Program-made: the position numbers and the translations under genes
Shown here: positions 124 through 9,545 of the stretch, piece by piece
How positions within the stretch are numbered: position 1 is the stretch's first letter
Layout: every line of letters starts with the position of its first letter
The notes under the pieces: generated by a model
Seen by the model: the letters and a program-made list of their open reading frames with translations, nothing else
What the model was told of the DNA's origin: nothing
Database searches by the model: none
Virus record (IMG/VR): IMGVR_UViG_3300045988_165978
Strand: one strand, 5' to 3'
Origin: a virus
DNA: 49,278 nucleotides

Positions 124-582
124 TTATTTATCTTCTCTTTTCATCTGAGCAAGCCAGATATCAAATACCTTTCCTTCCGGAGCATCAGGATCATGCATAT
201 AAGCCTTTGCCATTTTTACATAGGTACTTGCTTCACTGCCCAGAACATCAGAGAAATCACTGTAAAGCATATTCATAGTATAATAAAAGTCAGCTTTCTC
301 CTTTATACCATTCTGTTCTGCCAAAGGATTGGTTTTTTCCATTGACCAATGCTCACCAGTTGTCCCGTCTACATTACGCATTGCAGAAACGGCTTTTTTC
401 GCCAGTTCTTCATCAAAATGCGGACCATAGGCCAGGCAGTGTACCTTATACATAGCACAGTAAAATTCTTCCGGGCAATGTCTACGAATTTTCTCCATTG
501 TTTCGCTTACTATATTTTTCAGCTCTTTTTCCTTCGTTTCATTCCCGACGATTTTTTCAAAGTATTCCAGATACTTATGCAT
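124..582 (-). CDS. hypothetical protein (152 aa), cargo region
   Basis: Long ORF with no competing frame. Function not recognised. Confidence 0.6.
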   Translation of the reverse strand: MHKYLEYFEKIVGNETKEKELKNIVSETMEKIRRHCPEEFYCAMYKVHCLAYGPHFDEELAKKAVSAMRNVDGTTGEHWSMEKTNPLAEQNGIKEKADFYYTMNMLYSDFSDVLGSEASTYVKMAKAYMHDPDAPEGKVFDIWLAQMKREDK

Positions 583-595
583 AGTCTTTCACCGC

Positions 596-1027
596 CTACG
601 CCACTTTTATGATCGTAATGCTGGCATTATTTACTGTCGCTGCCGCACTTGATTGAACCTGCAGTACGGTAGTATTATCTATTGCATAGCAGGAAGGGAG
701 TTCTTTAACTAACGTGCTAAAACTGATATTATAAATATCTGCCGCCGCACCTGTAATAGTAGCCTCAGCACCCGGAACAGCAGTGCCGTTGCTAATTAAC
801 TGCAAGGTTATATCTCCTGCCGCTGCAGGTGTTACATTGCCATTGAATGTTACTAGATATAATCCATCAGAAGCAAGCGTTATGCTGTTGCTGCCAGCAA
901 CATGAACTACAGAACATCCGTTTCGTACACTATTGGTATTAAAATCTAAAAAGCCTTCTGCTACTACTGTTTGATCTGCTACTGTTACCGCGGTCAGCGC
1001 AGGCCTTTGATTGCAATTACATGCCAT
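596..1027 (-). CDS. BclA C-terminal domain-like (exosporium glycoprotein / C1q-TNF jelly-roll-like) protein, 143 aa, no collagen repeats
   Basis: C-terminus ...NASITIIKVA and the beta-rich Thr/Val/Gly pattern resemble the BclA C-terminal domain (which ends ...SIIIEKVA) from memory. N-terminus is MACNCNQRP. Confidence 0.5.
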   Translation of the reverse strand: MACNCNQRPALTAVTVADQTVVAEGFLDFNTNSVRNGCSVVHVAGSNSITLASDGLYLVTFNGNVTPAAAGDITLQLISNGTAVPGAEATITGAAADIYNISFSTLVKELPSCYAIDNTTVLQVQSSAAATVNNASITIIKVA

Positions 1028-1109
1028 TTTTATCAGTTCCTTTCATCAATATAATCAAAGAGGACGGTTTGCACCGCCCTCTTTCTTTGGTGCAATTAAT
1101 GCACTTTAC

Positions 1110-1754
1110 TTAGCAGCCACAGCCGCAGTTATTGGCTGCAGTATAAGGGCTGCAGGTGATGTAAGCAGGTTGGGGAAACGGACGTAAAGTGCTGATAATA
1201 TTAGCACTTTGAGCTTGCTGGCTCAGTTGGAAGTTTGCAGTTTGCAAATCTCTATCTCTGTCAGCCAGTTTATCCCGCAAATCCTGCATAGTGTTTGCAT
1301 TGATCAGTGCGCGGGTAGCTTCGCCCTCTGCATGAATAGCATTGGTAATCTCGCAGGTATTACGATAATTTTCTGCACGTACTGCATCAATATTGCGATT
1401 AGTTTCACAGCAACATTGCTGTGCAGCAAAACGGTTTTCTGCAATAGCTGCACCGATAGTGCTAAAGCCATTAAGCATAGTCGTGTTCTGAGCATAGAAC
1501 CCGTCACACAAACCGTTTTGAACACCACGGATACCATTCTTGATATCCTGGGCATCAAAGCCATTAGCCAGATCGGAACGTGTCAACGCACTTTCCAGTC
1601 CATTGTTACGATTATTACCCCATCCGCCCATCAAGGCAAACAGTACGATGATCCACATAAACCATGCGCCACCGCCATAACCAAAACCGTCACCGTAATT
1701 ATTACGGTTTAAATCCATTACAGGTACTACGCCTGCTCCACCTTCCATAGTCAT
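1110..1754 (-). CDS. Gly-rich membrane protein with YjcZ-like (sporulation) N-terminal segment and Cys-rich C-terminus (214 aa)
   Basis: N-terminus GYGGGAWFMWIIVLFALMGGWG resembles YjcZ-family sporulation peptides. CCC and CGCGC motifs at the C-terminus. Confidence 0.5.
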   Translation of the reverse strand: MTMEGGAGVVPVMDLNRNNYGDGFGYGGGAWFMWIIVLFALMGGWGNNRNNGLESALTRSDLANGFDAQDIKNGIRGVQNGLCDGFYAQNTTMLNGFSTIGAAIAENRFAAQQCCCETNRNIDAVRAENYRNTCEITNAIHAEGEATRALINANTMQDLRDKLADRDRDLQTANFQLSQQAQSANIISTLRPFPQPAYITCSPYTAANNCGCGC

Positions 1755-1802
1755 AATTGATTCACCTCATAAAATTTTATTTTAAAAATCTGACGCGCGC
1801 TA

Positions 1803-2036
1803 TCAGATTCTTAGACCAAATTGGGAAAGAAGTTGATTCAGCTGTTGATCATCCATGCCTCTTTGTCTGGCCAGATTCCGTACGGTTTCCTGTAGCTGTT
1901 GCGGGTTTTTACCGCGCCCCATCTGCATGGCTCTTTGCATCAGCGGATCATTACCAAACATTTGCTGGAAGATTGCCATTGGGTTCGGACTGTTTTGTAT
2001 TTGCCCGATCATCTGTATTAATTGCATTGGATTCAT
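1803..2036 (-). CDS. hypothetical Gln/Met-rich small protein (77 aa; true start may be internal)
   Basis: ORF overlaps the 3' end of 1951..2454 by 86 nt in another frame, so the start is uncertain. Confidence 0.4.
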   Translation of the reverse strand: MNPMQLIQMIGQIQNSPNPMAIFQQMFGNDPLMQRAMQMGRGKNPQQLQETVRNLARQRGMDDQQLNQLLSQFGLRI

Positions 2037-2454
2037 TATCTTTCTCCCCCTTCAAGTATCTTTCCAAAGATTCTACTTTCTGCTGCAGGGTTTCAACAGT
2101 ATCCGCATCAGCATATCTTTTCGGAACATCCGGATTTTCTTTTGAAAGTCGATATGTCTGAACAATGGGCAGACCATTCATATTTATTGCTTTTGCATAA
2201 ATACAATTATCTGCAGGACAGATAAAATACGTAAATGTTCCGTCTAAATCTATTTGAGCGGCTTTTACTTCATCAAAGCTCCCTACTGTCCGCCCTTTTA
2301 ATACTGCAGGCATGGCTGGTGTGTTATACTGTGACTGCATCATATTTTGCTGCTGATAGTTTGGCATCGGCTGCATTGGTTGAGGATATTGCACCTGTCG
2401 TTGCTGTTGGCTGGGAAACATATTAACTCCCGGTACATAGAGATTATTAAACAT
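1951..2454 (-). CDS. hypothetical Pro/Gln-rich protein (167 aa)
   Basis: ORF preceded on the minus strand by GGGGGAG ribosome-binding site and a TATATAATA -10 like element (about 2490-2500). Confidence 0.55.
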   Translation of the reverse strand: MFNNLYVPGVNMFPSQQQRQVQYPQPMQPMPNYQQQNMMQSQYNTPAMPAVLKGRTVGSFDEVKAAQIDLDGTFTYFICPADNCIYAKAINMNGLPIVQTYRLSKENPDVPKRYADADTVETLQQKVESLERYLKGEKDNESNAINTDDRANTKQSEPNGNLPANVW

Positions 2455-2574
2455 CTTTTACTCCCCCGTTCTCTTTGATTTACTGTATTATATATAAATT
2501 TTTCTCTCTAAAAAGGACTATAAAAGGACATAAAACAGACAATAAAAAACAGCCCGTTTGGGCTGTCATAAACA

Positions 2575-2742
2575 AAAGCAGTTATCAAGTAATCCTTGAT
2601 AACTGCTTAAATTTTTTATTAATGCCTAACGCCAGGCTTGCAAAATCCATGTCCATATGGTTTTGATTTGATTGAGGAATTCTCACGAACTTGTCTGAGC
2701 GATATATTTAAACTTCGAGGGTCTACTCCACCGGCGTTAGGC
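2575..2742 (-). ncRNA. candidate structured ncRNA (unit 0): minus-strand promoter, 16-bp closing stem ATTAATGCCTAACGCC/GGCGTTAGGCATTAAT, tandem terminators
   Basis: Minus-strand -35 TTGAAA (2778-2773), 18-nt spacer, -10 TAAAAT (2754-2749). Perfect 16-nt inverted repeat at 2616-2631 and 2726-2741. Two hairpin+T-run terminators at 2560-2620. Confidence 0.45.
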
Positions 2743-2833
2743 ATTAATATTTTAGCACATCAATATTTTTATTTTCAATAAACTATGAAAAAAATCTTTA
2801 ACTCAAACACAAGATTTTCTATAAAATTTTCTC

Positions 2834-2990
2834 CTTTTTTTAATTGACTTTTTCTATAAACCAATAGTATAATATCCACCGGGACGACGGTATTGCTGCG
2901 CCGTACTCCTACAATTTTATGTGAGCGTAAGAGAAGTGAACCCCTTTGGTTAGATAATTCTAACGAAAGGGGTTTACTTCTTGAAGAATT
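2834..2990 (+). ncRNA. plus-strand unit U1: consensus promoter (TTGACT-18-TATAAT, 2834-2863) -> about 100-nt transcript -> hairpin CCCCTTTGGTTAGATAATTCTAACGAAAGGGG + T-rich tail
   Basis: Promoter motifs read directly. Hairpin with palindromic loop at 2940-2975. No ORF. Confidence 0.45.
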
Positions 2991-3120
2991 TGACTTTTTC
3001 AATGAACCAATAGTATAATAACTATAAAGAGATAGTCGGTATTGGATCACCGGCTCTCCCCGTAATTAAAAAATTTGACGGAAGGCCGTGTAACCGCAGG
3101 TTATGCGGTTTTTCTCATTT
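2990..3120 (+). ncRNA. plus-strand unit U2: consensus promoter (TTGACT-18-TATAAT, 2990-3019) -> about 90-nt transcript -> terminator ACCGCAGGTTATGCGGTTTTTCTCATTTT
   Basis: Near-identical promoter to U1 (ttgactttttc.a..aaccaatagtataat). GC hairpin + U-run at about 3088-3118. Shares CGGTATTG...CCG...CTCC with U1. Confidence 0.45.
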
Positions 3121-3326
3121 TATTTTCGAAATGAGAGAATGACTACTATAAGAGTTGCAAAACCTATCATTAAAGATAAGGTTTCATAAACAGTCATAGC
3201 ATCACCCCCTACTCTTTTGGAGTAGGAAAACCGATTACCGACTATCTCGAAAATTATTATAGCATAACTAAACATATTTTTAAATAACAGGGAATATACC
3301 CCGGTTATTTCTTTATGATAAGCAAA

Positions 3327-3534
3327 AAGCCCTCTCTGCTTAACAGAAGGGCCTTTTGTATAACGGATGGTGAAAGGATGAAGTACCTAACGCCAGCCAG
3401 CAAAAGAAAACGAGTCGGAGTTGGAGGTTATTGCATGTTGTCAACCGAACAAGAGAAACTATATCTGCTTTCCTAAAAAAGTCAAACTGTTTCTTTAACT
3501 AAACCTGCACCTTTACTAAACTGTCGTTAGGTTC
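3327..3534 (-). ncRNA. candidate structured ncRNA (unit 1): minus-strand promoter TTGAAA-17-TAATAT (3569-3541), closing stem CCUAACGACAG/CUGGCGUUAGG, terminator at 3327-3362
   Basis: Promoter lies in the conserved 70-bp repeat 3533-3605. 5' and 3' arms (3521-3531 and 3386-3398) are complementary 10/11. Hairpin + T-run on the minus strand at 3327-3362. Confidence 0.45.
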
Positions 3535-3653
3535 AAATATATATTAGCACCACTTTTTTAGGTTTTCAATATCCTAAAGCAATACTATTTTTTTATAAAC
3601 TAAAATGAATATCAAAACTAACGACTTTATTTATAACACTCTTATCAATACCA

Positions 3654-3828
3654 AAATCCCTCGTTGCATACGCAACGAGGGATTTTGGTACTTTTGGGCA
3701 AGGATTAAGATTTTGTGCCTAACGTCAGCCTGTAAGGTAAATGAGTGGAGAGTTAGATTTGGGATAACACTATTGCCCGTTGTGGTAGGACATCAATCAT
3801 ACACCTTTACTGAACTGACGCTAGATAC
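3654..3828 (-). ncRNA. candidate structured ncRNA (unit 2): minus-strand promoter TTGAAA-17-TAATAT (3863-3835), closing stem CUAGCGUCAG/CUGACGUUAGG, terminator at 3654-3690
   Basis: Paralogous to unit 1; the 70-bp repeat at 3828-3900 is near-identical to 3533-3605. Arms at 3815-3824 and 3718-3728 pair with one G-U. Perfect 13-bp hairpin AATCCCTCGTTGC-ATA-GCAACGAGGGATT + T-run. Confidence 0.45.
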
Positions 3829-3897
3829 AAATATATATTAGCACCACTTTTTTAGGTTTTCAATATTCTAAAGCAATATTATTTTTTCATAAATTAA

Positions 3898-3935
3898 AGG
3901 AAGCCACTAAAATCAGTGACTTCCTTTTTCATATA
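3898..3935. terminator. bidirectional terminator hairpin (AGGAAGCCACT...AGTGACTTCCT + T-run)
   Basis: Stem with one mismatch, T-runs on both strands. Just downstream of the minus-strand gene 3954..4220. Confidence 0.5.
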
Positions 3936-3953
3936 ATAAGATCAGCAACCTTA

Positions 3954-4220
3954 TTATTTTTGTAATGCTTTTTCACAGTTTTGTTTATTCAGTATTTCGT
4001 GGATCATCCGGTAACTTTTTCGCAGATCCCGTACTACAGTTTTTTCAGATAGCCCGAGACGGTCAGCTATTTCATAATTAAGCAAGTGCCGTATAAACCG
4101 CAGTTCCAGTATTTCCAGCTGGCGCGGGGTCAGCTTTACTTTCTCTATTACTTCCTGAAATTCTTCTTTGGTCGGTATATCGTCCAGTATATGACGAACT
4201 TTCAAGTTTGTACGGTTCAT
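3954..4220 (-). CDS. small sigma-70 region-4-like DNA-binding protein (88 aa), putative late-gene/transcription activator
   Basis: LTPRQLEILELRFIRHLLNYEIADRLGLSEKTVVRDLRKSYRMI matches the sigma-70 region 4 / ECF-type HTH pattern. There is no region 2. Confidence 0.6.
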   Translation of the reverse strand: MNRTNLKVRHILDDIPTKEEFQEVIEKVKLTPRQLEILELRFIRHLLNYEIADRLGLSEKTVVRDLRKSYRMIHEILNKQNCEKALQK

Positions 4221-4224
4221 CGTT

Positions 4225-4686
4225 TCACCTGCTCGCTATTATTGCTCCTGCTACTGCTCCTCCGACAATTCCCCAGCCAAGCTTTTGGATCTGTTTTAGC
4301 CTACTTTTCTTTTGCTCCTGTTTTATTTGAGAGCTCAATGTCTCTAAGGATTTGTTTTGCTCTGCTATTGTCTTGTTGGAGTTCTTTAACAATTCCTGAA
4401 CCTGTGTCAGCTCGTTCTTGCCCTTCTGATAGGATACGTTCTGCTCTTTGATTAGCTTCTGCAGCTCGTTCGAGTTCCTTTTCTGCTGCTCCAATATGTC
4501 CGACAGCTTTATCAAGCGACTTTCCGAGTTCTCGGTTATCTCCCATAACTCCATGAACTGTTCCCTGGACATCGTTATTGTTTCCGGTAGATCCTCCCGA
4601 TTCGCCGCCGAACATATACCAGGCAATAACAGCAATAACAAGGACAGCAAAAATAATACTATACCGGTGATCATATATTTTCTCAT
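4225..4686 (-). CDS. alternative-frame secreted/membrane coiled-coil protein (153 aa; N-terminal signal-like helix, C-terminal Gly-zipper TM)
   Basis: ATG at 4686 with the same AGGAGG 11 nt upstream. N-terminus MRKYMITGIVLFLLSLLLLLLPGICSAAN. C-terminus LGWGIVGGAVAGAIIASR. Cannot tell from sequence which frame, or both, is expressed. Confidence 0.4.
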   Translation of the reverse strand: MRKYMITGIVLFLLSLLLLLLPGICSAANREDLPETITMSREQFMELWEITENSESRLIKLSDILEQQKRNSNELQKLIKEQNVSYQKGKNELTQVQELLKNSNKTIAEQNKSLETLSSQIKQEQKKSRLKQIQKLGWGIVGGAVAGAIIASR

Positions 4687-4690
4687 ACAC
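4301..4690 (-). CDS. membrane-anchored coiled-coil protein (129 aa, GTG start; N-terminal TM, Gly/Ala/Glu-rich), i-spanin-like topology
   Basis: AGGAGG 7 nt upstream of GTG at 4690. N-terminal hydrophobic helix SIIFAVLVIAVIAWYMF. Fully overlaps 4225..4686 in a different frame. Confidence 0.4.
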   Translation of the reverse strand: MYEKIYDHRYSIIFAVLVIAVIAWYMFGGESGGSTGNNNDVQGTVHGVMGDNRELGKSLDKAVGHIGAAEKELERAAEANQRAERILSEGQERADTGSGIVKELQQDNSRAKQILRDIELSNKTGAKEK

Positions 4691-4729
4691 GGTTAAACCT
4701 CCTGTTCCGTCTGCAGTTAATAATATAGT

Positions 4730-4924
4730 TTAAGAAAAAACCGCCTGCAAAACAAGAAGCGCCACAGCTCCAACTACGATTCCAAAAATACACGCTTTCC
4801 CGCATTGTTTATTACGGTATTTTTCAATACGGTTCTGAACGTTTACAGTGAAATCCTCAATATCTTCCGAAGCACTGCTGAGAAAATTTGTTAATCTGCC
4901 GATTTGTTCTAATAGCCATTCCAT
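4730..4924 (-). CDS. small tail-anchored membrane protein (64 aa), lysis-cassette associated
   Basis: C-terminal TM CIFGIVVGAVALLVLQAVFS. Position between the endolysin candidate and the dual-frame pair. Confidence 0.5.
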   Translation of the reverse strand: MEWLLEQIGRLTNFLSSASEDIEDFTVNVQNRIEKYRNKQCGKACIFGIVVGAVALLVLQAVFS

Positions 4925-4938
4925 GATAAAACTCCTCC

Positions 4939-5346
4939 TTAATCAACAACTTCTAATAACATACTGTTTCCGTTATCCAGTATCCATCTTGATACTTCTT
5001 CACCGTCTGCGTTTTGCATCCTCAGGCATCCATATGTGGGAACCCAGCCCTGATACGGAGCAAACGGGTCAGCAAGGCCGCTGCCGCCACCATGTATATC
5101 ACGATATCTGGAATCACCGGTATGGATATAAAAAGTTCCATATGCTGCACCCTGTTCTGCCGCTAAATCCATCCCCGGGTAATCTGCGCTTACCGTATAG
5201 TTTCCATTAGGCAGGGATTCTCTCTCCTGCCCAGCACCATTATAGCCAGGAACAATAGCGCTGCGGCATTCATAATCTTTTATTACCTGGCCTAAATCAT
5301 CCATTGTGTATAGTCTCTGTTTTGATCTTATGTACTGTAATTGCAT
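4939..5346 (-). CDS. L,D-transpeptidase (YkuD) catalytic-domain protein, candidate endolysin / peptidoglycan-remodelling enzyme (135 aa)
   Basis: Motif ...IHGGGS...YGCLRM matches the YkuD catalytic His and Cys (HG[TS]...GC[IL]RM). Sits in the lysis cassette flanked by membrane proteins. No other lysozyme/amidase in the window. Confidence 0.6.
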   Translation of the reverse strand: MQLQYIRSKQRLYTMDDLGQVIKDYECRSAIVPGYNGAGQERESLPNGNYTVSADYPGMDLAAEQGAAYGTFYIHTGDSRYRDIHGGGSGLADPFAPYQGWVPTYGCLRMQNADGEEVSRWILDNGNSMLLEVVD

Positions 5347-5542
5347 TTTCTTCTACCTCCATTCTTTCTATAGCCATTTTCAGCGCTTCATCCTTGCGCC
5401 AATCACCGCCAAATTTTATTCGTAAAGGGTCTAAACAGTTACGCATAGCCTTTAATACCTGAACTGCTTCATCTACCGTTAAAATCATTATGCGGTCTTC
5501 TTTCGGGTTGTTTTTCGTCTTCGTCAGATATGCCATTCCCAT
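5297..5542 (-). CDS. hypothetical small protein (81 aa, start uncertain)
   Basis: ORF overlapping both neighbours; may be spurious. Confidence 0.3.
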   Translation of the reverse strand: MGMAYLTKTKNNPKEDRIMILTVDEAVQVLKAMRNCLDPLRIKFGGDWRKDEALKMAIERMEVEENAITVHKIKTETIHNG

Positions 5543-5807
5543 TACGGTCTATAAGCCTACGGCTTAATGCCAGCAGGCTTCCCAGAAGTGGAGCTCCGCA
5601 TATAACCAGTATTATATCCTTTAGCTCCGGCAGCCCTGCCTTATTCAGCCAGAATGTGAAATATACCCAGGTTCCAATGTATAGCAATATCGTTCCGAAA
5701 AGCAGATACAGCGCTGCATAGATTGGCCACATATTACCGCTGGATATCGCTATATCCGGCAATTTTGACATACCTTTTTCCAGCCAGCCTTTTATTTTTA
5801 CGAACAC
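5469..5807 (-). CDS. holin-like membrane protein (112 aa, about 3 TM helices, charged C-terminus)
   Basis: Three hydrophobic segments followed by a highly charged C-terminal tail. Immediately upstream of the endolysin candidate. Confidence 0.55.
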   Translation of the reverse strand: MFVKIKGWLEKGMSKLPDIAISSGNMWPIYAALYLLFGTILLYIGTWVYFTFWLNKAGLPELKDIILVICGAPLLGSLLALSRRLIDRNGNGISDEDEKQPERRPHNDFNGR

Positions 5808-6160
5808 TTATTGCACCCCCTGTTTTCCACGTCCGGAGGATTCTGAGGTAACTGCAGGACCTTGTTGTAAATTTCGGTAATTGCGCCATTACCGCCAAGA
5901 GCTTTATAACTCCTATACATGTCCATTATGTTTTCCATATTGTAGATAGGTATAAATCTTTTCTCCTCTGATTTATGATAGATACTTATGATCTCAGTTC
6001 GGAGCAAACTTCTTATAGCATCGTCTCGTGCTACTTCCTGCTTGTTCCTTTCCTCGATATCTGCCCGGTATTTAGCATACATTTTCCATAAAATACCCAG
6101 TAATCCGCTCTGCAGCAGCAGGCTTACTGTTGTACCTATATGAGTTTGTATATACTCCAA
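5798..6160 (-). CDS. membrane protein with N-terminal TM (120 aa), possible second holin/antiholin
   Basis: N-terminal helix TTVSLLLQSGLLGILW, then a charged region. First gene after a terminator/promoter gap. Confidence 0.45.
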   Translation of the reverse strand: MEYIQTHIGTTVSLLLQSGLLGILWKMYAKYRADIEERNKQEVARDDAIRSLLRTEIISIYHKSEEKRFIPIYNMENIMDMYRSYKALGGNGAITEIYNKVLQLPQNPPDVENRGCNKCS

Positions 6161-8299: not shown

Positions 8300-8539
8300 T
8301 CACTCTACATAAAGCTCTGAACCGTCAGGAAATACTAAGTGCCCAGAAGAATTAAAAACACCTGCATTTATATAGCTCAGAGAGTTCCAGTCAGTAGCAC
8401 CATTGCCGAATTTCATTTTGAATGTATCTGTTTCTAACCCTATTTCACCTTTTGCTAAAGTCGGGTTTTTAGCTTGCCAATTTGCCGCCGTATCATTTCT
8501 GCATGACAAAGATTCGATATTCAATGTTACTTTAGCCAT
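8300..8539 (-). CDS. mini tail-fibre paralog (79 aa): N-terminal fibre domain joined directly to conserved C-terminal motif
   Basis: N-terminus is about 60% identical to 8550..9545 (L.IE.L..RNDTAANW..KNP.LAKGE.G.E.DT.K.KFG.G). C-terminus SGHLVFPDGSELYVE resembles the C-terminus of 10135..10605. Confidence 0.5.
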   Translation of the reverse strand: MAKVTLNIESLSCRNDTAANWQAKNPTLAKGEIGLETDTFKMKFGNGATDWNSLSYINAGVFNSSGHLVFPDGSELYVE

Positions 8540-8549
8540 TCTTCACACC

Positions 8550-9545
8550 TCATGCATTACCGCAGTTTAGTATAAACGTATCAGAATTCTTCACATAGGA
8601 TGCACCGTCAGACAAGCTTTCAACCTTAGTCTTTGCAATGTTGGTATTAAAGTTTGCCGTCGCCCGTTCATCTGTGTAATATAATTTGCTTCCCTCGGCG
8701 ATATCGCTCGTAGTAAGCGTTACCGCGCCTGTTTTTCCGTTGACAGATAATACTGCTGCTGTTGCGCCTCTTAACTGTATCCAGTTATCTAAGACACTTG
8801 CCGGAGACTGCTTTAAGATAAAGCTTCCAGCTCCGTCTGTTCTAACTGCGACATCACCCGTTTGGGCTTCAAGCGCCAGCATTTCTTCCTCATTGTCTAC
8901 TACATGCGGCTCAGTAATTGCAAGGGCAGGAAGAATAGATTCATCAAGTTTGCCGCTCTCATTCAGCATCGGCACATTACCTGCAGCTGAACCAACATTT
9001 TTAGTTGCCGCTGTGCCGATCCCGGTTATTTTACTCGTAGACAGATTCGGAATATCGCTTTCAGAAAGATTGGTTGCCGTTGTTACCCGTCCTTTGGCAT
9101 CAACCGTAACTTTGGTATATGTACCTGCAGTAACACCGCTGTTTCCCAAATTTGCCTGTATGGCAACGGCTGCACTGCCGTCAAAAGAAGCAGAACCGCT
9201 AACATCACCGGAAAGCGTTATACTTCTGGCCGTTTTCAACTTCGTTGCTGCAGTTACCTCACTTACTGACATCGTACCGTCAGAAGCAACAACGACTTTA
9301 TCTGTTCCGGCAGCCTGAGATTTTACGCCGCCTAAGGTACTTGTCGTAGCAGTAGGAAGATCATATTCATTACTGCTGGCGTAACTCAGCTCCTGCCACT
9401 TTGTTATACCATCACCAAACTTAAATTTTTTAGTGTCGATCTCTACGCCCATTTCACCTTTGGCTAATACTGGATTCTTACTGTTCCAATTTGCCGCCGT
9501 GTCATTTCTCATTTGCAGAGTTTCGACTTTTAATGTTTGCGCCAT
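8550..9545 (-). CDS. tail fibre protein (331 aa) with conserved N-terminal fibre domain
   Basis: N-terminal motif typical of Firmicute prophage tail-fibre N-domains. Ser/Thr/Gly/Ala-rich body. Confidence 0.7.
   Translation of the reverse strand: MAQTLKVETLQMRNDTAANWNSKNPVLAKGEMGVEIDTKKFKFGDGITKWQELSYASSNEYDLPTATTSTLGGVKSQAAGTDKVVVASDGTMSVSEVTAATKLKTARSITLSGDVSGSASFDGSAAVAIQANLGNSGVTAGTYTKVTVDAKGRVTTATNLSESDIPNLSTSKITGIGTAATKNVGSAAGNVPMLNESGKLDESILPALAITEPHVVDNEEEMLALEAQTGDVAVRTDGAGSFILKQSPASVLDNWIQLRGATAAVLSVNGKTGAVTLTTSDIAEGSKLYYTDERATANFNTNIAKTKVESLSDGASYVKNSDTFILNCGNA

Follow-up and report, generated by a model that had tools for sequence, protein, structure and literature searches.

We analysed two almost completely overlapping open reading frames (ORFs), ORF-A and ORF-B, on the minus strand of the viral record IMGVR_UViG_3300045988_165978 (IMG/VR), a stretch of 49,278 nucleotides (nt) that is referred to here, at its full length, as the window. 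Both frames are almost certainly genes, which makes this a case of same-strand dual coding within a phage lysis cassette. Taken as a whole, the pair is best explained as a lipoprotein-independent, spanin-like module for outer-membrane disruption whose two proteins are made by dual initiation, a reading that we hold with moderate confidence.

ORF-B (4301..4690, 129 amino acids (aa)), the i-spanin-like partner, starts at a GTG (4690..4688), and ORF-A (4225..4686, 153 aa) starts at an ATG (4686..4684). An AGGAGG Shine-Dalgarno (SD) sequence common to both was read from the sequence at 4703..4698, 7 nt from the GTG and 11 nt from the ATG. The ORF-B frame lies one base upstream of the ORF-A frame, and ORF-A is in the +1 frame relative to ORF-B. 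With the starts 4 nt apart, the two frames share 4301..4686 (386 nt, 99% of ORF-B), and ORF-A continues 76 nt beyond the ORF-B stop, these 25 codons being its sole single-coded part. The hydrophobic segments follow this layout. A predicted Sec-type signal peptide occupies ORF-A residues 1-27 (4606..4686) and is supported by sequence, by alignment and by an AlphaFold2 helix at residues 2-28 followed by disorder at 29-40; the same bases that encode its hydrophobic core encode the transmembrane (TM) helix of ORF-B, residues 10-28 (4607..4663). A Gly/Ala-rich C-terminal hydrophobic helix, ORF-A residues 136-152 (LGWGIVGGAVAGAIIAS; 4231..4281), lies past the ORF-B stop. A preliminary description made from the sequence alone had reported two nearly fully overlapping same-strand ORFs of 153 and 129 aa, a GTG at 4690 and an ATG at 4686 placed 4 nt apart behind one AGGAGG, and frames that stay open for more than 385 nt, and all of these coordinates were confirmed. 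Its picture of the products, each a hydrophobic N-terminal helix followed by a charged coiled coil, with a Gly-zipper TM segment at the end of the 153-aa product, was accurate throughout.

Conservation of both frames in related phages had been proposed in that description as a check on dual coding, and it bore dual coding out. DNA of 61 related loci was assembled from IMG/VR gut viral contigs, Phascolarctobacterium faecium DSM 14760 and Logan/ENA/NCBI contigs; an exact 15-mer scan for loci gave mostly chance matches, which were removed by tblastn. Both frames were open in 61 of 61 loci, never one alone, and the products measured 149-159 aa (A) and 126-137 aa (B). The loci represent about a dozen lineages, in several of which (L008, L129-132, L133/134, L135-137, L138-141 and L142-145) the A protein is only ~22-35% identical to that of the window. 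The start pairs lay 2-7 nt apart after a single purine-rich SD in 11 of the 12 lineage representatives, arranged either with B ahead (GTGnATG or ATGnATG) or with A ahead and the B start two bases further on ([AG]TGTGG); in L133 the B start precedes that of A by 16 nt. In all lineages the ORF-B start codon stands beside the shared SD, and each frame has its own start and its own stop.

Protein databases hold the two products as separate sets. Searches with A retrieved 61 public proteins, all of 149-154 aa but for an entry truncated to 109 aa and another of 170 aa that is frameshifted, and searches with B retrieved more than 133, mostly of 126-139 aa; the separation of the sets indicates that different gene callers pick different frames. 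RefSeq and GenBank annotate B only, as 'hypothetical protein' (WP_329758374.1, MBQ9257542.1), and other pipelines A only, while the JGI names 'septal ring factor EnvC', 'CwlO-like' and 'nitrogen fixation-related' are coiled-coil artefacts. When 1.84 billion cluster representatives were searched by profile, 249 clusters at 50% identity fell into the A family with E<=1e-3, 85 of them with E<=1e-10. Among 50,697 GenBank phage records, blastn with the 5 kb around the pair found no match, and neither did tblastn with A and a B relative, a search in which the low-complexity filter may hide coiled coils. P. faecium DSM 14760 was the sole return of a scan of genome contigs, and no viral contig was found for the query P0203. 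Pfam, PHROGs, NCBIfam and PADLOC gave, for both window proteins, only generic coiled-coil matches far below cutoffs.

The open frames were then set against chance. In a codon resampling of 3000 trials, the amino acids of one frame were held fixed and its codons redrawn from the phage's own usage. With ORF-A fixed, ~11 stops were expected in frame B, which was open in 0 of 3000 resamples; with ORF-B fixed, ~7 stops were expected in frame A (P=0.0003). The outcome was the same in six relatives (P<1/3000 for B given A, P<=0.0003 for A given B). The mechanism by which frame B stays open is visible in the T-poor codon endings of ORF-A: within the overlap 9% of its codons end in T vs. 31% phage-wide, and of the 44 that precede a codon starting with AA, AG or GA, none does (13.7 expected). 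The third sense frame contained 18 stops over the window overlap and 10-22 in the related loci, and no antisense frame was consistently open across those loci. Two antisense ORFs (4086..4451 and 4448..4696) were considered as genes and rejected, as their open frames are not conserved.

For a substitution-history test, 29 unique sequences were joined in a minimum spanning tree (central 285 nt, 368 substitutions). If only A were coding, 22.1 stop-creating changes in B would be expected, and none was retained (P=2.5e-10); if only B were coding, 21.8 would be expected in A, and again none was retained (P=3.5e-10). Conditional-likelihood analysis, with stop-creating changes excluded, gave an omega of ~0.5 for frame A (likelihood-ratio P ~1e-6) and of ~0.7 for frame B (0.66-0.75; likelihood-ratio P 0.011-0.014), and a control frame had an omega of at least 1 that was not significant once A and B were in the model (P=0.19-0.36). 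Substitutions were rarest at the first position of A codons (the second in B), more frequent at the second (the B wobble position) and most frequent at the third (the first in B), a flattened pattern that dual coding predicts. Selection was also seen on the TM helix of ORF-B, which is more hydrophobic than ORF-A dictates (P=0.0027 for the window and at most 0.008 for every one of nine lineages), partly by way of TTR leucine codons, which make up seven of the nine Leu codons in the ORF-A hydrophobic core vs. 42% phage-wide. The low chance that the preliminary description had assigned to an open alternative frame of this length is upheld by these results, since codon resampling, substitution history and selection on the ORF-B TM helix all reject chance.

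Two explanations would keep only one of the frames as a gene. In the first, ORF-A is the gene and ORF-B an accident of purine-rich, T-poor coiled-coil codons. Coiled-coil genes rich in GAA, AAG and CAG are stop-poor in some alternative frames, two antisense frames are also stop-poor here (2-9), and the omega of B is only moderately below 1. This explanation is nevertheless extremely improbable: B is open in every locus of the dozen or so lineages, where ~22 stops were expected and none was kept, and a conservative test that permuted ORF-A's own synonymous codons still left frame B open in only 0-2.7% of trials. B also has a start beside the SD everywhere, a TM helix not dictated by A, and motifs and a Cys of its own, and the NCBI pipeline calls B, not A. 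The case for B comes mainly from stop avoidance and from these conserved features. In the second explanation, ORF-B is the gene and ORF-A the accident. RefSeq annotates B only, and A stays open in 2-43% of trials when the codons of B itself are permuted, but with phage codon usage the probability is at most 0.0003, purifying selection is stronger on A than on B, and none of the expected A stops was kept. In addition, the 249 A clusters share a fixed architecture that includes the 25 codons beyond the B stop, and A carries seven consecutive heptad Leu/Ile positions, so that an accidental ORF-A is next to impossible.

Programmed ribosomal frameshifting, which the preliminary description had raised as another possibility, would join the two frames into a fusion product. 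Frame-switching chimeras do occur in public protein sets, from B to A in P0042, P0048-51, P0186, P0189, P0243 and P0303 and from A to B in P0282 and P0309, but they switch at differing places, as indels or assembly errors would. No slippery X XXY YYZ heptamer was conserved in the close-clade alignment and none was present in the window; TTTAAAT was found in one N-terminal module only and AAAAAAG in 4 of 33 sequences. In every lineage each frame has a start of its own beside the SD and a stop of its own. The anatomy is accounted for by alternative initiation and not by frameshifting, which we regard as very improbable. The chimeric database entries also reveal B-like sequence in further lineages, beyond the loci for which DNA was in hand.

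ORF-B has the predicted shape of an i-spanin, with an N-terminal anchor and a helical periplasmic domain encoded in the lysis cassette of a phage of diderm hosts. The N-terminal core (IIFAVLVIAVIAWYMFG, residues 12-28) has a mean Kyte-Doolittle value of 2.63 and is preceded by basic K4 and R9 (plus H8), a charge distribution that by itself suggests an N-in/C-out (type II) topology. AlphaFold2 models of both proteins were built with family alignments. For ORF-B, the model comprised a helix at 6-27, a 12-residue loop and a single helix at 41-124, with predicted local distance difference test (pLDDT) values of 57-86. The long helix carries Ala/Ile heptads, and no two-helix-plus-linker pattern was predicted, unlike in Rz. 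The N-terminal TM domain is present in all lineages, a D..V motif after the TM helix is common across divergent lineages, and the family motif AKQIL(R/A)DIE.SN marks the C-terminus, with ILADIE.(A/S)N common to most lineages. Of 11 lineage representatives, 10 have a periplasmic Cys at the same position, and the window ORF-B has none. The window ORF-B had no match to spanin families. Distant B proteins matched 'Rz-like spanin' PHROGs weakly (phrog_312, 2.7e-4; phrog_739, 5.7e-3; phrog_89, 9.6e-3), matches in which coiled-coil bias is possible.

ORF-A begins with a signal region made up of an MRKYM n-region, a Leu-rich hydrophobic core (MITGIVLFLLSLLLLLL) that averages 2.95 on the Kyte-Doolittle scale, and a PGICSA c-region. 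The latter contains C-S-A, a cleavage-type site at which the signal peptide is probably cleaved. In the AlphaFold2 model, the helix at 2-28 is followed by a 12-residue loop and a single helix at 41-152, with block-mean pLDDT of at least 90 over residues 41-130. This helix contains a heptad leucine zipper of seven consecutive positions (L79, L86, L93, L100, I107, L114 and I121), of which five are at least 90% conserved across the wide family and position 107 is invariant among close relatives. A basic collar, KKSRLKQIQK, precedes the C-terminal helix, the core of which has a mean Kyte-Doolittle value of 1.72. The window ORF-A has no periplasmic Cys. The common plan of N-terminal hydrophobic signal, coil and C-terminal anchor was found in 115 of 118 full-length A-family representatives, nearly all of 140-170 aa. 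Family motifs are (P)QTITMS..Q[YFW]..L after the signal and a basic collar [KR]RQR[DN].W; a basic cluster with an aromatic residue precedes the C-terminal core in 108 of the 118. G+A+S+T make up 42% of this core, after which the chain continues for a median of one residue. Against the PDB, a sequence search with the A-family profile returned only the heptad repeats of SMC, tropomyosin, SNARE and spike proteins, and Foldseek of the ORF-A model against viral structures found nothing, a lone helix being uninformative as a query.

The lipobox named as a check in the preliminary description was not present in either window product. The signal site of the window ORF-A reads LPGIC, which departs from the lipobox [LVI][ASTVI][GAS]C. 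Relatives have PAIC, SLNC or PCGC at this site, and some have no Cys there (SAGWAADTTT, FTVSADTTT). Overall, a Cys near the end of the hydrophobic core was found in 92 of 115 A representatives at a varying position and was absent or displaced in ~20%. The A-family signal ends are instead small-x-small sites of the signal-peptidase-I type (C-S-A, C-F-A, L-A-A, V-S-A). ORF-A as a lipoprotein was therefore rejected, the site being non-canonical and the Cys not universal. The enrichment of Cys in A follows from the codon geometry of two dual-coded hydrophobic segments, as A codons starting with T (F, L-TTR, S, C, W, Y) put T at B codon position 2 and thereby yield hydrophobic residues in B.

The window represents a phage or prophage with genes on the minus strand in the order terminase, portal, tape measure, tail fibres and then the cassette (~6160..4225). 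At the cassette head is a PHROG 4105 protein of 120 aa (5798..6160, minus; phrog_4105 E=7.6e-21, L133 homologue 8.4e-24), followed by a candidate holin, a multi-TM protein of 112 aa (5469..5807, minus). The candidate occupies the same position as a 121-aa TM protein of L133 (3019..3384) that matches phrog_28789. In the endolysin slot lies a 135-aa protein with a YkuD (L,D-transpeptidase fold) domain (4939..5346, minus; Pfam PF03734 E=1e-6, 29.8 bits vs. a cutoff of 23.4). This protein, which had no sequence relative in the PDB, is possibly an atypical endolysin acting by L,D-bond cleavage or tether release. A 64-aa protein without a family match (4730..4924, minus), helical at the N-terminus and with a TM helix at the C-terminus in a tail-anchored, XhlA-like shape, comes directly before the pair and is a possible further cassette component; a similar 63-aa protein occupies the same place directly upstream of the pair in L008 (35..226). 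No strong terminator was found between the pair and the upstream genes in the window.

In the relatives, the pair directly follows endolysins of four different families among lineages. The endolysin ahead of it is an Amidase_2 protein in L125, L129 and L138, a Peptidase_M15 protein in L126-128 and a GH25 protein in L133 and L135-137, and holin-like genes upstream encode Phage_holin_4_1, phrog_199 or small TM proteins. The location in the lysis cassette given in the preliminary description is well supported by this recurrence. The endolysin stop is overlapped by the start of A in L129 (ATGA) and by the start of B in L133 (TAATG), arrangements that by their sequence are classical translational coupling to the endolysin. 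In L127/128 and L135-137, no further phage gene separates the pair from host genes. A role of the pair in the lysis cassette is very likely. Directly downstream in the window, and not part of the pair, is an 88-aa protein with a sigma-70 region-4 / LuxR-type helix-turn-helix (3954..4220, minus; Pfam Sigma70_r4 7.8e-7), found at the same position in L126 (2273..2515) and L133 (4450..4734). One public protein, P0069, is B fused to this helix-turn-helix protein by deletion or frameshift.

All named hosts belong to the Negativicutes, across two orders: P. faecium, 'Acidaminococcaceae bacterium' metagenome-assembled genomes and Allisonella (Dialister) histaminiformans. L126 is, moreover, flanked by an Omp85/ShlB gene. 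The diderm host that spanins would imply, according to the preliminary description, agrees with this record, all named hosts being diderm. Negativicute phages derive from Firmicute phages of the Gram-positive type but have to get through an outer membrane with lipopolysaccharide. The genes lolA-E are absent from Negativicutes, and in Veillonella parvula no outer-membrane lipoproteins were detected (PMC5491611, PMC10665443), so the o-spanin or u-spanin solution should not work in such hosts. A survey of 485 Negativicute prophages does not mention spanins (bioRxiv 10.1101/606087), and our full-text literature searches on Negativicutes, Veillonella and diderm Firmicutes turned up no account of spanins there.

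A spanin equivalent without an outer-membrane lipoprotein fits hosts that lack the Lol pathway, and outer-membrane disruption is the activity that we somewhat favour for the pair. In the proposed sequence of events, one late mRNA with a single ribosome-binding site would be read by ribosomes starting at either GTG 4690 or ATG 4686, giving two unrelated proteins that are expressed together with holin and endolysin and serve a third lysis step in a diderm Firmicute of the gut. ORF-B would sit in the inner membrane with its N-terminus in the cytoplasm and a ~84-residue periplasmic helix ending in ILADIE. ORF-A would be exported by Sec and lose its signal, leaving a ~90-residue leucine-zipper helix, the basic collar and a weakly hydrophobic C-terminal helix. 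Once the peptidoglycan is cut, the two rods, presumably as an A-B complex, would bridge or attack the outer membrane, with the collar and the Gly/Ala-rich helix of ORF-A as the second membrane contact. A more specific proposal, which we advance only tentatively, is that the pair is a hitherto unidentified outer-membrane-disruption system of diderm-Firmicute phages that arose for hosts without Lol. A and B would then be made in a fixed ratio and assemble a periplasm-spanning stalk, the collar and C-terminal helix of ORF-A, resembling signal-anchor-release (SAR) segments in composition, would engage or fuse with the outer membrane once peptidoglycan is gone, and the overlap would be an ancient dual coding maintained across at least 249 clusters at 50% identity.

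Several observations weigh against an outer-membrane role. The lipobox, the defining feature of o- and u-spanins, is missing, and the window proteins match no spanin family, such matches being confined to distant B relatives and weak. Both anchors, as read, lie in the inner membrane, which leaves contact with the outer membrane unexplained, and a basic collar on the periplasm-facing side of the ORF-A C-terminal helix is unusual. The C-terminal half of the A family is weakly XhlA-like (phrog_937, 2.6-3.7e-4; Pfam XhlA, 0.02, below the cutoff). The slot between the endolysin and the prophage end also carries lysogenic-conversion genes in Firmicute prophages, host names were available for three lineages only, and amino-acid-level constraint on B is modest (omega ~0.7, P~0.01).

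Some of these points would also suit two real proteins that do not disrupt the outer membrane and act instead as holin-associated timers or effectors of the XhlA kind, or in superinfection exclusion or lysogenic conversion. The C-terminal coil and anchor (60-75 residues) of some A-family members weakly match XhlA-type 'hemolysin' PHROGs (phrog_937, and phrog_1193 at 1.4e-3) and Pfam XhlA; the inner membrane is the simplest place for both anchors; and a last-phage-gene position, as in L127/128 and L135-137, is a typical moron site. However, 115 of 118 A representatives have a signal peptide, which makes the coil periplasmic, whereas XhlA has none. The best A-family score against XhlA (PF10779) was 15.4 bits (P0045) vs. 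a cutoff of 34.7, and the window ORF-A had no Pfam match to XhlA. Separate holin candidates stand upstream in every cassette, the starts that overlap the endolysin stop in L129 and L133 point to late co-expression rather than to a moron with its own promoter, and every named host is diderm. Roles of this kind are the main competitor of the spanin-like module proposed above, relative to which we consider them unlikely.

If the function were confirmed, the pair could count as a new kind of outer-membrane-disruption system, and a conserved candidate makes the question of outer-membrane lysis testable in V. parvula, which is genetically tractable. The dual coding itself is extreme for a same-strand case, covering 99% of one gene and placing two membrane segments in the same bases. 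It is also stable down to ~22-35% protein identity, which makes the pair a test case for overprinting theory and for gene callers.

Other features of the window and its relatives were recorded alongside the pair. Downstream of the lysis region, ~2500..3950 is AT-rich with few ORFs. Terminators lie at 2576..2608 (strong and bidirectional) and 2548..2567, and both strands have several promoter-like sites close to consensus. Beyond the cassette, on the minus strand, comes a conserved block (124..2454) with counterparts in L133 (4807..6178) and L126 (4350..4796). It encodes proteins of 167 aa (Q/P/M-rich, Q/N-rich), 77 aa and 214 aa (Cys-rich at the C-terminus; phrog_16490), all three syntenic in L133, together with a BclA_C-like domain protein, whose Pfam score falls just short of the gathering cutoff, and DUF7841, which recurs in L126. 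On the other side of the cassette, a tail-fibre-like protein with an Mtd_N (major tropism determinant) domain is encoded at 8550..9545 (minus), and the N-terminus of a 79-aa ORF (8300..8539, minus) is similar to it by eye. In L129, a reverse-transcriptase-like ORF with a YMDD motif (1206..2516) lies near the lysis genes, and this phage group may carry diversity-generating retroelements.

The pair was compared with known lysis proteins of both monoderm and diderm hosts. XhlA-type proteins (PF10779; PBSX XhlA, SPP1 gp24.1) are ~70-90 aa long and carry no signal peptide; in monoderm hosts they work alongside holins at the cytoplasmic membrane. ORF-A resembles them in having a coiled coil followed by a C-terminal TM helix within a Firmicute-type lysis module. 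It differs in being twice as long, in its signal peptide and hence periplasmic coil, and in overlapping a second gene. A different route is taken by the disruptin gp28 of phage phiKT, which serves in place of spanins (bioRxiv 10.1101/515445). It sets a precedent for an outer-membrane breach by a cationic membrane-active segment and no spanin complex, and ORF-A, compared by description, has a basic collar and a hydrophobic C-terminal helix. The cationic peptide gp28 is, however, small and soluble and has no signal peptide, coiled coil or overlapping partner.

Among spanins, u-spanins combine a lipobox with a C-terminal TM domain, and spanin genes are often embedded or overlapped, with the o-spanin in the +1 frame (PMC6139136). 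Like the u-spanin T1 gp11, ORF-A has an export signal and a C-terminal TM segment and is encoded in a lysis cassette (PMC6139136). T1 gp11 is, however, an outer-membrane lipoprotein with a lipobox, is rich in beta strands and works alone, whereas ORF-A has a signal-peptidase-I-type site and a fold predicted as a single alpha helix, all-alpha rather than beta-rich, and is always co-encoded with B. ORF-A thus departs from the u-spanin plan in site and fold while sharing its C-terminal hydrophobic helix. It also departs from the o-spanin plan of a short, largely unstructured periplasmic domain without a TM domain, having 153 aa, a 112-residue helix modelled at high confidence and a C-terminal hydrophobic helix. 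Its gene layout is that of an o-spanin, in the +1 frame with a start 4 nt after that of B and an end 76 nt after.

The closest parallels are lambda Rz/Rz1 (embedded) and P2 LysB/LysC (overlapped), which are likewise the last genes of a holin-endolysin cassette in phages of diderm hosts (Kongari et al. 2018, PMC6139136). ORF-B shares with Rz an N-terminal TM domain and a helical, coiled-coil periplasmic domain, to which most relatives of ORF-B, though not the window ORF-B, add a periplasmic Cys. ORF-A, like the o-spanin partner, opens with an export signal and is read in the +1 frame relative to its partner gene, and, as in P2, it runs past the stop of that gene. Gene callers routinely miss one partner in all three cases. 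The Rz/Rz1-type embedded pair suggested in the preliminary description holds for the overlap, the cassette and the i-spanin shape of B, but not for the lipobox, which neither product has, and strictly speaking the pair is not of the Rz/Rz1 type. The larger partner that the description mentions is real and lies in the +1 frame, and the spanin class would be 'overlapped' rather than embedded, since A runs 76 nt past the B stop. Rz1 and LysC are short, proline-rich outer-membrane lipoproteins, whereas ORF-A is longer than its partner (153 vs. 129 aa) and is, as modelled, one long leucine-zipper helix with a terminal hydrophobic anchor. The window proteins have no significant sequence similarity to either pair. 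In lambda, Rz1 lies inside the Rz linker, whereas here a single ribosome-binding site serves both frames, even the two N-terminal hydrophobic segments are dual-coded and the overlap takes in 99% of B. Finally, o-spanin systems depend on the Lol pathway, whereas the hosts of these phages are without it.

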